A DNA stretch of 56,555 nucleotides from Candidatus Woesearchaeota archaeon. Its GTDB lineage: Archaea > Nanobdellota > Nanobdellia > SCGC-AAA011-G17 > ARS1403. The number at the start of each line of letters is the position of its first letter. The stretch's first letter is position 1. Below the pieces are notes generated by a model. The model ran no database searches. It saw only the letters and a program-made list of their open reading frames with translations, and was not told where the DNA came from. A program made the position numbers and the translations under genes. The stretch is from assembly GCA_018302705.1 (NCBI GenBank), contig JAGVZI010000011.1, positions 1 to 56,555 on the forward strand. The letters are read 5' to 3'. Positions 1-28,081 of this stretch are shown here, one piece after another.

Positions 1-20
1 CCATCTACTGAAGCATGAGT

Positions 21-32
21 AAAGCTTAAAAA
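21..32 (+). promoter_or_regulatory. Putative archaeal BRE/TATA promoter of the 5S rRNA gene
   Basis: AAAGCTTAAAAA lies about 25 nt upstream of the predicted 5S start at 54. Confidence 0.4.
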
Positions 33-93
33 CGCTTATTTCATCATTTTATTTGATGAACGGCCATAGTGCCCTGGTTCCACCCGATCTCGT

Positions 94-126
94 AATTTCA
101 GATTCTTGCGGGAATTTGGTGAGAAG
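94..126 (+). other. 33-nt BHB intron 1 in 5S rRNA (loop C)
   Basis: Central helix TCTC(88-91)/GAGA(121-124), bulges GTA(92-94) and AGT(125-127), outer helix CGA/TCG, internal hairpin. Cutting after the 2nd bulge base restores the 5S consensus. Confidence 0.85.
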
Positions 127-138
127 TTCGATCTCGGA

Positions 139-166
139 TTAATCGTCTTCCAGATGATTACGAGTG
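139..166 (+). other. 28-nt BHB intron 2 in 5S rRNA
   Basis: Central helix CTCG(133-136)/CGAG(161-164), bulges GAT(137-139) and TGA(165-167), intron stem TAATCGTCT/AGATGATTA. Splicing gives CTCGGAAGTTAAGC. Confidence 0.85.
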
Positions 167-246
167 AGTTAAGCAGGGCAACGCCTATTACTGTACTGTG
201 TTCATGCACGGGAACTTTTAGGTGCTGTTCATCACTTTTTTATTAG

Positions 247-1146
247 TTATGATTTCGCTAAAATCTCTTCGTAAACATCCTTGGCAACATCCGCTCTTAT
301 CGAGAAGCCAAGGCCTTCAACGTTCGCAATCTTCCAAGTATTTATGGCAATTATTTTTTTATTTAAGTTTATCAGCGGCCCGCCAGAATTTCCTGGATTT
401 ATAGGAGCATCTGTCTGCAAATAAATATTCAGCCTATTCGGGCCTGTTCTCTGCTTGGAGCTGACAATGCCTTGAGTGACGCTAAAGCTTAATCCAAGCG
501 GGCTTCCGACGGCAATCACGCTCTCCCCGATCTTTACGTTGTCCATGTCTTCAAATTCTAAAAATGGGAAGTTTCCATTTTCAACACGCAGAACAGCAAG
601 GTCAATATCGGACTCGTATCCAATCAAGTCAGCGCGAAAAGCCTTATTGTCAACAGTGCCGATTATAATATTCTCCTCGTTGCTTTCAATTACATGATAG
701 TTTGTAACTAAATGCTGGGGAGAAACAAAGACGCCAGAGCCAAAACTATTCCCGGCCTTGACAACCACAACGCTATTAATTACGTCCTCGATTATAGAGG
801 AGAAATCCTTGCTCGCCTGAATCTGCACATTTTCCAATTCTTCAAGGCCTTCAGATAATTCTTCTATCGCCCTCTTGCTTTTTTCGCTCTCTTTCAGCAA
901 GGCGTCAATATTGCCTCCAAGGCTTTTAATCGCAGCAGCGCTTTCTTTTCTTAAATTCCCGATCTCATCATCAAGCTCTGTCTTCTGAGAATCAACCTTC
1001 CCATCCAACACTAGCAAAGAATTTTCAACGCCATCAATTTCATTGCTTAAATCTCTTTTCAAGTCATATAATAAATAGCCCTGGAAAATCAGTATAGCTA
1101 CAATTACAAGAAAGGATATGTTCAGAAAGTGCTGGTTTATTCTCAT
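247..1146 (-). CDS. Membrane-anchored trypsin-like (HtrA/S1C-type) serine protease with coiled-coil stalk, no PDZ
   Basis: N-terminal TM, coiled coil, TNYHV / DLA / QTDAPINPGNSGG catalytic triad motifs. Confidence 0.9.
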   Translation of the reverse strand: MRINQHFLNISFLVIVAILIFQGYLLYDLKRDLSNEIDGVENSLLVLDGKVDSQKTELDDEIGNLRKESAAAIKSLGGNIDALLKESEKSKRAIEELSEGLEELENVQIQASKDFSSIIEDVINSVVVVKAGNSFGSGVFVSPQHLVTNYHVIESNEENIIIGTVDNKAFRADLIGYESDIDLAVLRVENGNFPFLEFEDMDNVKIGESVIAVGSPLGLSFSVTQGIVSSKQRTGPNRLNIYLQTDAPINPGNSGGPLINLNKKIIAINTWKIANVEGLGFSIRADVAKDVYEEILAKS

Positions 1147-1191
1147 CTTGCAGTATTAAGAAAATTAATTTAAAAAGTTAATGAAAACAGA

Positions 1192-1584
1192 TTAAACAAA
1201 TTTTTCAGGGTCATCAACGCACTGCCATTCAACGCTGCCATCATTCTTATTAATTGGTGAGCAAATCTCCTCGACGCCGCAAGGCAACGGGCAGGTTTCT
1301 TCTTTCAATTCTTTTTCTTCCTCAAAAGCCTCTATCTTTGCTTCAAGCTCCTCGATTTTTTTTAAAAGGTCGCTCTTTTCTAGTATCAGCCTTTCATTCT
1401 CGCTTCTGAGCCCGGCTACTTCATCAGCCAAGCCATCAGAACTTTCGCCTGAATCTCCGGCATCACTTACAACCCTGCCAGTAACATCTTCTATACCACG
1501 ATTCTGAAAATTCAGTATAATATTAACTAATATAAGGACACTCAGCACGCTCAGCACAACTATCAATACATCTGCCTTTTTCAT
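1192..1584 (-). CDS. Hypothetical membrane-anchored coiled-coil protein with Cys-rich C-terminus
   Basis: N-terminal TM, VTGRVV motif, coiled coil, 4 Cys. Confidence 0.7.
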   Translation of the reverse strand: MKKADVLIVVLSVLSVLILVNIILNFQNRGIEDVTGRVVSDAGDSGESSDGLADEVAGLRSENERLILEKSDLLKKIEELEAKIEAFEEEKELKEETCPLPCGVEEICSPINKNDGSVEWQCVDDPEKFV

Positions 1585-5403: not shown

Positions 5404-6021
5404 ATGGTAGAAAAAATAAAATGGTTTGGGCACGCATCTTTTAAAATCACGGGATGGAAAGTAATTTATATTGATCCCTGGAAGATTCAAGATGAAGATG
5501 AAGCAGACATCGTATTAATCTCCCATCCTCACTACGATCATTTTTCCCTGGAAGATCTTAAAAAAATAACTGGTCATGAAACAGACATTCTAATCACTCC
5601 AGATTGCCAGTCGAAGTTGCGCGATATTAATGGAAAAGTCACACTAGTGGAGCCCGGAAAGAAATACAGCATTAAAGATATCATAATCGAGACAACCCAT
5701 TCTTATAATATAAATAAAAGATTTCATCCGAAAGAAAATGACTGGGTTGGGTTCATAATTAACCTTAATAATCGTAAAATCTTTTATGCAGGCGACACAG
5801 ATAATGTTCCAGAAATAAAAAATCTTAAGGTTGATGTTGCTTTAATTCCCATATCCGGAACTTATGTAATGGACGCTAAAGAGGCAGCCGAATTAGTAAA
5901 TGAAATGAAGCCTAAAATAGCAATTCCCTACCATTATGGCGACATAGTCGGAACCGAGCAAGACGCATTGAAATTCAAGAAATTAGCCAAAATACCTGTC
6001 GAAATTCTTAAAAAACAATAG
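5404..6021 (+). CDS. MBL-fold metallo-hydrolase
   Basis: WFGHASF, SHPHYDH, YAGDT, IPYHYG. Confidence 0.9.
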   Translation: MVEKIKWFGHASFKITGWKVIYIDPWKIQDEDEADIVLISHPHYDHFSLEDLKKITGHETDILITPDCQSKLRDINGKVTLVEPGKKYSIKDIIIETTHSYNINKRFHPKENDWVGFIINLNNRKIFYAGDTDNVPEIKNLKVDVALIPISGTYVMDAKEAAELVNEMKPKIAIPYHYGDIVGTEQDALKFKKLAKIPVEILKKQ

Positions 6022-9180: not shown

Positions 9181-9379
9181 TTTTTTTCTCCTAATTAAAA
9201 ATATATTTTAGAGAACCTCTTTAGAGGAACTTTTTTAGAAAATTACTACTATATAAGCCTTTCCTTTTTGGTTTTAATATTTTATGCAAGAATAATTCTA
9301 GGCGGTTTATCCGATCGTTTGGAAGTATCTATAAAAGAACAACAACATTTAAAACCTTAATCTTCCAGCAAAGTTAATA

Positions 9380-10792
9380 ATGGGGCAAGAGGAAGTAAAA
9401 AAAGAATTAAAGAAGTCAGGCTCGTGGTTGTTAAGCAATGAAATAGCTAAAGCAACCGGGCAATCCCTTAAATCAATCCAGTCATCTTTGCGCAGGCTTG
9501 TAAAATGGGGGGAGGTAAAGAAAGAGCCGGCTTCAAGAGTGATTCAAGACTCCAACAGGCTGAAGGAAAAAAGCTTCGCAGGGTATGCCTATAAGATAAA
9601 GGATTTCAAGACAATAGATGATTTCAAGTTCAAAGATAAGACAGTGTTGCTAAGGCTGGATTTAGATTCGCAGATGCACCCGAGTTTCATTTCAACGGAT
9701 CATTTTTCTCATCACCTTCCAACTATTTTAGAGCTCCTGGAGAAGCAGGCCAAGATAGTAATCCTGACGCACCAGGCATCAAAATCAAATGATGGAAAAA
9801 ACCCTACTCCCTTATTAGACATGCACGCATCTTATCTCTCGCAAAAGCTAAACAAGGAGGTGAGATACATAGATGACCTCACTGGAGAAACAGCCCAGAA
9901 CAGCATAAAATCGCTAACCCCGGGAGATATTATTATATTAAAAAACCTGTTTTCAGAAAAAGAAGAGATGAAAACAAAGTTCAAAAAGCAGAAGAAAACA
10001 AAGCTTGTTAAAACTCTCTCCCATTTAGCAGATTATTACGTTAATGATTCTTTCTCTCTAGCTCATTTATCCTACACATCATTAACAGGGTTCCCGCAAG
10101 TAATGCCTTCATGCATCGGAAGATTTTTTGAAAAGGAGATTGAAGCTGCAAATCACCTGTTAGATCCAGTAAAGCCGTGTTTGTATATTCTTGGAGGAGA
10201 TAAGCCACTGGAGCTGGCGCCATTCATCAAGGCATCTCTCGAAAAAAACAGGGTTAACACAATACTCACCTCAGGCTTCCTCTCCCATCTGCTTCATCTA
10301 GCCCAGGGCAAAAAGCTCGGCGGCCAGGAAGAGGAGCTAAAAAAGCTGAAAATAAAAGTCTCCTCAGACATAAAAAAGATTGCAAAATATGAGAACGTTA
10401 TCCTCCCGAAGGATTATAAGGCCTCTACTTTAGGAGTAGCAGAAAAAATCTCGCTGCATCATTTCCCCATTTACCAGAGCCTTTATGAGATCGGGTCTGA
10501 AACCGTGGAAGATTATTTAGGGTTGATAAAAAATGCCAAGACTATTGTAATCAAAGGCCCATTAGGAAAAATAGAGGACAATAATTTTCAAGAAGCGACA
10601 AAAGCTGTTTTAGAAGAAATTGAAAAGTCAAATGCCTTTACATATATTGTAGGCAATTCAACAGTAGATTGTTTTAAACAATTTAATATCCCAATAAAAA
10701 ACATCAAGCACCTCTCAAAAAACACCCAGCCATTGCTTACTTATCTGACAGAAGAAAAGCTCCCAACAGTAGAAGTTCTGAGGACGAAATGA
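9380..10792 (+). CDS. N-terminal winged-HTH fused to a degenerate phosphoglycerate-kinase-fold domain
   Basis: HTH at aa 1-75; PGK framework KTVLLRLD, YVNDSFSLAH, ILGGDK, KGPLGKIE, with catalytic motifs altered. Confidence 0.8.
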   Translation: MGQEEVKKELKKSGSWLLSNEIAKATGQSLKSIQSSLRRLVKWGEVKKEPASRVIQDSNRLKEKSFAGYAYKIKDFKTIDDFKFKDKTVLLRLDLDSQMHPSFISTDHFSHHLPTILELLEKQAKIVILTHQASKSNDGKNPTPLLDMHASYLSQKLNKEVRYIDDLTGETAQNSIKSLTPGDIIILKNLFSEKEEMKTKFKKQKKTKLVKTLSHLADYYVNDSFSLAHLSYTSLTGFPQVMPSCIGRFFEKEIEAANHLLDPVKPCLYILGGDKPLELAPFIKASLEKNRVNTILTSGFLSHLLHLAQGKKLGGQEEELKKLKIKVSSDIKKIAKYENVILPKDYKASTLGVAEKISLHHFPIYQSLYEIGSETVEDYLGLIKNAKTIVIKGPLGKIEDNNFQEATKAVLEEIEKSNAFTYIVGNSTVDCFKQFNIPIKNIKHLSKNTQPLLTYLTEEKLPTVEVLRTK

Positions 10793-27981: not shown

Positions 27982-28081
27982 TGGGGACGGAGGGATTTGA
28001 ACCCCCATCAACCGGTCTGGAGCATTGACTAACCTTTAAATTTTAGTTATCGGTCACACTACCGGATTATGCTACGCCCCC
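27982..28081 (-). tRNA. trnW: tRNA-Trp(CCA) with 27-nt intron at position 30/31
   Basis: Acceptor GGGGGCG/CGTCCCC, T-loop GTTCAAATC, spliced anticodon arm ACCGG-CTCCAGA-CCGGT; 73 nt after splicing. Confidence 0.92.
28024..28050 (-). other. BHB intron in tRNA-Trp
   Basis: Central helix TGAC/GTCA, bulges CGA and ATG, intron stem TAACT/GGTTA. Confidence 0.88.

Follow-up and report, generated by a model that had tools for sequence, protein, structure and literature searches.

The window, by which we mean the whole stretch of 56,555 nucleotides that was analysed, lies on contig C12 of the assembly (G000) of a small-genome, Woesearchaeota-type DPANN archaeon from groundwater. Close to its beginning, at positions 56-233 of the forward (+) strand, a cmscan search against Rfam identified a 5S rRNA gene that matched the full RF00001 model (positions 1-120) with 47.3 bits, the Rfam cut-off for this family being 38 bits. 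One block within the match, 62 nt long, stays unaligned; the model expects 3 nt there. This is the single 5S match in the whole assembly, which comprises 851,386 bases in 34 contigs and is 97.68% complete and 0.3% contaminated.

The gene as we delimit it has five segments, all on the + strand. Exon 1 (54-93, 40 nt) supplies the 5' strand of helix I, helix II, the 5' strand of helix III and the start of loop C. It is followed at site 1, in loop C, by an insert of 33 nt (94-126), the predicted intron 1, whose bulge-helix-bulge (BHB) motif spans 85-130. Next comes a micro-exon of 12 nt (127-138), which completes loop C and provides the 3' strand of helix III, and then, at site 2, between two A residues that follow helix III, an insert of 28 nt (139-166), the predicted intron 2, with a BHB spanning 130-170. 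Exon 3 (167-234, 68 nt) carries the 3' strand of helix II, helices IV and V, and the 3' strand of helix I. An A/T-rich element at 21-33 (+), about 25-30 nt before the start of the gene, is from its position likely to be the BRE/TATA promoter of a stand-alone 5S gene, and it is conserved, since the blastn alignments of the window to the loci of two same-genus relatives, G001 and G003, both begin at position 14. Directly 3' of the gene is a run of six T residues (236-241, +); oligo-T terminators are used in archaea, and this run likely serves as the transcription terminator. Outside the 5S gene, the flanks are not common to the G001 locus. The neighboring gene, on the - strand from 240 to about 700, apparently encodes a trypsin-like (HtrA-type) serine protease, as judged by eye from a Gly-Asn-Ser-Gly-Gly-Pro stretch. 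Introns of group I and of group II are built around a catalytic RNA core and extend over hundreds of nucleotides. Inserts of 33 and 28 nt match neither kind of self-splicing core, and an Rfam scan of the window at gathering thresholds returned the 5S gene and one tRNA only.

Bulge-helix-bulge motifs at the insert borders

The motif around intron 1 has an outer helix 85-87/128-130, a central helix 88-91/121-124, bulges at 92-94 and 125-127, and an inner helix that starts from 95/120. Around intron 2, the outer helix is 130-132/168-170, with two G-U pairs, the central helix is 133-136/161-164, the bulges are 137-139 and 165-167, and the inner hairpin is 140-148/152-160. In the window, the outer and inner helices of both motifs are at least 3 bp long, with several of the pairs being G-U. 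EndA, the splicing endonuclease, cuts a 3-nt bulge behind its second base, and cuts placed by this rule take out 33 and 28 nt, so that the 181-nt gene becomes 120 nt. The two 4-bp helices, the four 3-nt bulges, the hairpins and the 120-nt product had all been described in the first-pass annotation and are borne out by the sequence. That annotation also called both motifs perfect, but the word is a little too strong for intron 1, where the inner helix stacked on the bulge has only 3 bp, two of them G-U, and where another fold is preferred. The free fold of 54-234, at -63.9 kcal/mol (z = -4.2 against shuffles), pairs differently at the first motif. Forcing that motif gives -58.1 kcal/mol, a cost of 5.8 kcal/mol, and forcing both gives -55.3 kcal/mol, with helices I, II, IV and V staying intact. 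Folded locally, each of the two motifs is no better than its shuffles (z = -1.0 and -1.2).

Motifs of this kind are easily found if the definition is loose. A permissive BHB was defined by a 4-bp helix in which G-U is allowed, by 3-nt bulges, and by helices of 3 bp or more on either flank. On both strands of the window it gave 465 matches, i.e. 0.74 per 181 nt, and two or more were present in 149 of 1000 dinucleotide shuffles of 54-234; the same scan also gave candidates in uninterrupted tRNAs. Neither the local folds nor the bare motif scan was therefore counted as evidence. The loose motif is frequent by chance, and it is the comparative evidence that decides. The only two permissive motifs within 54-234 are located exactly at the borders of the two inserts, the removal of which restores a 5S sequence, and this coincidence of motifs with borders defined by homology exceeds chance.

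The borders themselves were tested with an nhmmer profile built from 38 intron-less 5S genes of relatives, that of the same-genus G001 included, and leaving out one bacterial-like match of 109 nt and two truncated matches. Against this profile, the unspliced gene scored 56.1 bits, the gene minus intron 1 74.4 bits (a gain of 18.3 bits), the gene minus intron 2 74.7 bits (a gain of 18.6 bits), and the gene minus both 93.1 bits. Shifting both border pairs by 1-3 nt in either direction lowered this last score to 73.3-87.2 bits. On folding, the 120-nt spliced product adopted the three-arm shape of 5S rRNA, and the predicted junctions are the same as the insert borders that a MAFFT alignment defines by homology.

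Distribution and covariation of the inserts in related genomes

The two same-genus relatives differ in the presence of the inserts. The 5S gene of G001, of 117 nt, has no inserts, scores 74.6 bits against RF00001 and is identical to the spliced form of the window gene in 101 of 117 columns, while the 175-nt gene of G003 carries both inserts at the same sites and, once spliced, matches in 112 of 117 columns. Intron 2 of G003 differs from that of the window by one base, and its intron 1 forms a different hairpin. In the blastn alignment of the window with the G001 locus, the matching segments are 14-93 and 167-240; in other words, the alignment stops at the predicted 5' splice site of intron 1 and restarts at the predicted 3' splice site of intron 2.

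Most of the 5S matches in a sample of 61 genomes of the order were 113-118 nt long. When the sample was widened to 151 genomes, 130 of which gave a 5S match with an E-value of 0.1 or less, long genes of 133-179 nt were found in 16 of the 130, distributed over 10 of 29 families, and none measured 120-132 nt. Both sites are occupied in 8 of these long genes, site 1 only in 5 and site 2 only in 3, which amounts to 24 inserts. A MAFFT alignment of the 16 long genes with 38 short ones contained only two large insert blocks, both at the sites of the window, and the segment between them, which aligns to the intron-less 5S genes, is a micro-exon that measures 12 nt in every one of the 8 genes of the order sample that have both introns. 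Among 125 genomes from other orders of the class (124 with a match), three more long genes were found, each in a different family, one having an insert at site 1 and two at site 2. Altogether, 275 related genomes of Woesearchaeota-type DPANN archaea yielded 19 5S genes with 27 inserts, all at the two sites, and the lengths of the predicted introns range from 16 to 37 nt across the set.

In borders that were taken from the MAFFT alignment with structure ignored, 22 of the 24 inserts of the order sample had all four pairs of the central helix in the exact register. When the 3' partner was slid by -10 to +6, only 0-3 of the 24 qualified, and when the letters of the introns were shuffled (2000 trials), the mean was 0.24 and the maximum 3 of 24. 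If the borders are instead chosen by the top HMM score among 49 border combinations per insert, a full central helix between 3-nt bulges is present in 24 of the 27 inserts. The three exceptions are all at site 1. In G137, a border 1-2 nt off scores 1.9 bits better, while the MAFFT border has 4 of 4 pairs, and in G142 and G220, 3 of the 4 central pairs are formed.

The intron half of the central helix co-varies with the exon half. At site 1, the exon motif TCTC is paired with GAGA or GGGA, while TCCC is paired with GGGA or GGGG and never with GAGA. At site 2, CTCG is paired with CGAG or CGGG, and in the two genomes where the exon differs (G132 and G183, loci L049 and L115), the pairs are ACAC/GTGT and ACCC/GGGT and the cut lies one base farther upstream, a shift with a rebuilt helix that suggests either sliding of the intron or an independent gain. 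Counted over the central helix plus inner pairs one to five, pairing is seen in 114 of 117 cells for the 13 introns of site 2, against 32-57 when slid, and in 108 of 126 cells at site 1, against 51-78 when slid, with most inner positions being occupied by two to five types of pair. The first outer pair of site 2 is formed in only 3 of 13 genes, and among the 24 introns of the order set there are four short ones with 0-2 stacked inner pairs, so that part of this intron family has to be regarded as relaxed motifs.

The inserts are also found in independent DNA. The public runs that contain window positions 1-1500 are DNA runs, with no RNA run listed. In 4 DNA runs, which come from at least 3 studies, contigs span the gene with 1-4 substitutions and show neither indels nor joints, and one of these 4 runs may be the source of the assembly. 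Searching metagenomes for the 34-nt end of exon 1 recovered 5 contigs, all of which carry intron 1; intron 2 is complete in 4 of them, and the fifth ends 10 nt into it. No spliced form was seen among these 5 DNA contigs. As for the variation among contigs, the changes 111 G>A and 114 A>G keep the pairs of the hairpin, one extra base lies in the loop of intron 2, and further changes are in the exons, while the central helices and the bulges are invariant. In one run, a contig diverges after base 91 and continues into the intron-less 5S gene of another organism.

Splicing enzymes and other interrupted RNAs of the genome

The genome contains one EndA gene, located on contig C18, which encodes about 193 residues with an N-terminal and a catalytic domain (PF01974, about 103-105 bits). 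The protein is closest to the catalytic alpha subunit of Nanoarchaeum equitans (3IEY_A, 113 bits) and to the homotetrameric enzyme of M. jannaschii (1A79, 111 bits), and its Tyr, His and Lys residues, which we take to be the catalytic triad, align with those of both enzymes. No second subunit was found, there being one Pfam match and no further tblastn match below E = 1. The enzyme is predicted to be of the alpha type and the single subunit in this genome. The RNA ligase RtcB is encoded as well (PF01139, 488 bits), on contig C26 at 9297-10568 (locus L044), and there is one TGA inside the matched stretch. The EndA gene is arranged head to head with a metallo-beta-lactamase gene that has a weak tRNase Z domain match (contig C18, locus L043, 1474-2997), the 5' ends of the two overlapping by about 60 nt as called; they may share a promoter region.

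Judging from the RF00005 match lengths, 14 of the 25 tRNA matches are at least 90 nt long, and the organism would appear to be dependent on BHB splicing already. The lengths were used for this purpose since ARAGORN mis-names tRNAs here when introns are allowed: by default it reported no tRNA in the window, and with introns allowed it called the tRNA of the window Leu(cag), several others being mis-named too. This tRNA, at 27982-28081 (-), is 100 nt long and has a 27-nt BHB insert at about 28024-28050. Excising the insert with the cuts placed as in the 5S gene leaves a proper Trp anticodon stem-loop (CCA), and this tRNA therefore serves as an internal control for the cutting rule. The BHB of this insert combines a perfect central helix with an inner helix of 5 bp, and it is located in the anticodon stem and not at the canonical position, which means that the enzyme of the organism must handle non-canonical sites. 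Classical alpha4 EndAs are held to be strict. In several DPANN lineages, single-subunit (alpha4) EndAs with an extra loop accompany disrupted tRNA genes, according to Kaneta et al. 2018 (PMC5829648).

As for the other stable RNAs, 16S and 23S rRNA had no match in the assembly, and the SRP RNA is of ordinary length. The RNase P RNA, on contig C34 at 5653-5970 (locus L123, 1501-1818, -), is 318 nt long against a model of 288 positions, with unaligned segments of about 24 and about 46 nt. We considered these segments as introns and rejected the idea: their borders carry no BHB, and they look like expansions.

A probable split 5S gene and its alternatives

On the evidence of sequence and its conservation, it is very probable that the 5S gene is a split gene, with exons at 54-93, 127-138 and 167-234 and BHB introns at 94-126 and 139-166 that would be spliced by EndA and RtcB. 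A doubly spliced 5S rRNA with a 12-nt micro-exon was what the first-pass annotation had proposed, and the junction scores, the relatives, the covariation and the enzyme genes all argue for it. Weighing against it are the chance frequency of permissive BHBs, the higher energy of the folds in which the motifs are forced, the weak outer helix of site 2, the 3 of 27 introns whose central helix is incomplete at the HMM-chosen borders, the presence of the inserts in all contigs recovered, which are DNA forms, and the single alpha-type EndA, given that classical alpha4 enzymes are regarded as strict. From the motifs, their register, their conservation and covariation, and the enzyme genes, we infer cleavage, ligation and an order of events that would run as follows. 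The gene would be transcribed alone, from the A/T-rich element upstream to the T run, and in the precursor, helices I, II, IV and V would fold as they do in mature 5S, while the region of helix III and loop C would be held in the two BHBs, with the exon positions 88-91 and 133-136 paired to the 3' ends of the introns. The single alpha-type EndA would then cut at 93|94, 126|127, 138|139 and 166|167, RtcB would ligate the 12-nt micro-exon to exon 1 on one side and to exon 3 on the other, and would probably circularise the introns. The formation of helix III and loop C, as in a normal 120-nt 5S rRNA, would have to await splicing.

It can also be envisioned that the inserts are retained, staying in the mature 5S rRNA as hairpins that stick out of loop C and of the internal loop that follows helix III, like the large insert in the 5S rRNA of Halococcus morrhuae. 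Retention is the only documented kind of large 5S insert, both inserts do form hairpins, and the formation of helix III around them would in principle still be feasible. However, retention gives no reason for the register of a 4-bp helix and 3-nt bulges in which the 3' ends of the inserts stand to the exon, nor for the covariation of the intron complement with the exon. The conserved pairings of the inserts make use of exon positions 88-91 and 133-136, which mature loop C and helix III need, and an expansion segment would form a helix of its own and leave the folding of the core untouched, but the pairings of both inserts engage the core. Also, the inserts are present in one member of the genus and missing from another, with the exons staying 5S-like, and the archaeal expansions described by Stepanov and Fox 2021 (PMC7812874) are in Halobacteriales only, with no DPANN taxon named in their text. 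We thus hold retention to be improbable. Slightly less probable still is excision that is not followed by ligation, where a fragmented 5S rRNA would be held together by base pairing in the manner of bacterial rRNAs after the removal of intervening sequences. The BHB evidence is the same for this pathway as for splicing, and base pairs with the 5' strand of helix III could keep the 12-nt piece in place. Against it, RtcB is encoded (488 bits), loop C would have a fragile core in a free 12-mer anchored by about 6 pairs, and in the archaeal BHB processing of tRNA, 16S and 23S introns, cleavage is followed by ligation of the exons.

The poorest prospects of all belong to the idea that the locus is a decaying or non-functional 5S copy, an artefact of assembly, or a chance likeness to BHBs, which we consider very improbable. 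Permissive BHBs are frequent, as described above, and another 5S copy could be unassembled, given that the assembly is in 34 contigs and has no 16S or 23S rRNA. But the gene is the sole 5S match in a genome that is 97.7% complete, and its exons give the fold and the score (93.1 bits) of a normal 5S, which speaks against decay. An artefact is difficult to reconcile with the same insert-bearing gene in independent contigs from several studies and with the same two sites in 19 species-level genomes. Chance, in turn, is at odds with the controls, which fail by a wide margin, 0-3 of 24 on sliding and a mean of 0.24 of 24 on shuffling.

The split 5S gene has much in common with other archaeal BHB systems. 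Known hosts of BHB introns are the genes for tRNA and for 16S and 23S rRNA, together with a few mRNAs, one case of the latter being cbf5 of Crenarchaeota, where the BHB intron is in a protein-coding transcript; the introns of 16S and 23S rRNA are usually much longer and may carry homing-endonuclease genes. The inserts described here share with archaeal tRNA introns the 4-bp helix, the two 3-nt bulges, the predicted cut behind the second bulge base, the short length, the hairpin interior and the central helix made of exon and intron together, and, as in multi-intron tRNAs, several introns in one gene leave very short exons. Unlike the tRNA introns, they are hosted by a 5S gene, which provides no tRNA body to guide the enzyme, and they sit in loop C and in the internal loop that follows helix III. 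The introns and processing stems of archaeal 16S and 23S rRNA are likewise EndA substrates within rRNA, with RtcB ligating the exons, as described in three papers (PMC10515664, PMC7714728, PMC6125680), but the processing stems, unlike the 5S inserts, lie outside the mature RNA. According to another source (PMC12918454), excision and circularisation hold for 16S and 23S rRNA, with 5S rRNA excepted. EndA acts outside tRNA on mRNAs as well, as in the case of a Haloferax mRNA substrate described in PMC7714728; cbf5 and the Haloferax mRNA have a single intron, in contrast to the small structural RNA with two introns considered here.

The resemblance to the expansion segments of Halococcus morrhuae and others is that in both cases the 5S gene is oversized, the inserts are discrete and can form helices, and standard annotation tends to overlook the genes. 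Stepanov and Fox 2021 (PMC7812874) list 89 expanded 5S genes, with 17 sites of expansion; these expansion segments are retained where tested, occur in Halobacteriales and some bacteria, and have no reported BHB geometry, unlike the inserts of the window, which carry a conserved and co-varying splice motif. The same authors allowed that without RNA data such 5S inserts could in principle be excised.

What would be new here is the 5S rRNA as the host gene; the BHB intron is a known kind of element, and it recurs across this DPANN order. As far as the literature searches reach, 5S rRNA has so far been treated as intron-free, and no report of 5S introns was found in the full texts searched, a body of literature that excludes subscription journals; this agrees with the first-pass annotation, which knew of no spliced 5S introns. 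Two papers that deal with both Woesearchaeota and the bulge-helix-bulge were found, and neither mentions 5S rRNA. Taken together, it is quite likely that 5S rRNA hosts BHB introns, which would be the first introns of any type reported there, and that in about one eighth of the sampled Woesearchaeales, and sporadically in other orders, the maturation of 5S and the assembly of the large subunit need EndA and RtcB, including the joining of a 12-nt micro-exon. The two fixed hot spots, the patchy occurrence in 10 of 29 families and the differences between members of one genus suggest that tiny introns without a homing gene were repeatedly gained, lost or spread laterally.

If the 5S rRNA is spliced, the substrates of the archaeal splicing endonuclease would extend to the third ribosomal RNA, and ribosome assembly in archaea with reduced genomes would be tied to the machinery of tRNA splicing. 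A 12-nt exon that has to be captured and ligated would put the grip of EndA and RtcB on their substrates to a stringent test, and the gene, with 181 nt, four cuts and two ligations, offers a compact natural system for studying in vitro how BHBs are recognized outside tRNA. Splicing would also imply that standard rRNA annotation undercounts or mis-sizes the 5S genes of DPANN archaea. In the order sample, 21 of the 151 genomes had no 5S match at E up to 0.1, and 5 of these that were re-tested had none even at E up to 10; some of the 5S-negative genomes may hide rRNA genes that are more heavily interrupted. A 2026 preprint on 208 complete Nanobdellota genomes describes some of them as having no detectable 5S and, in the text excerpted, does not mention 5S introns. 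In G055, a short 5S match is interrupted by a run of N. The intron-bearing genes that were recovered score between 26.6 and 66.6 bits against RF00001, with 7 of the 19 falling below the 38-bit cut-off.
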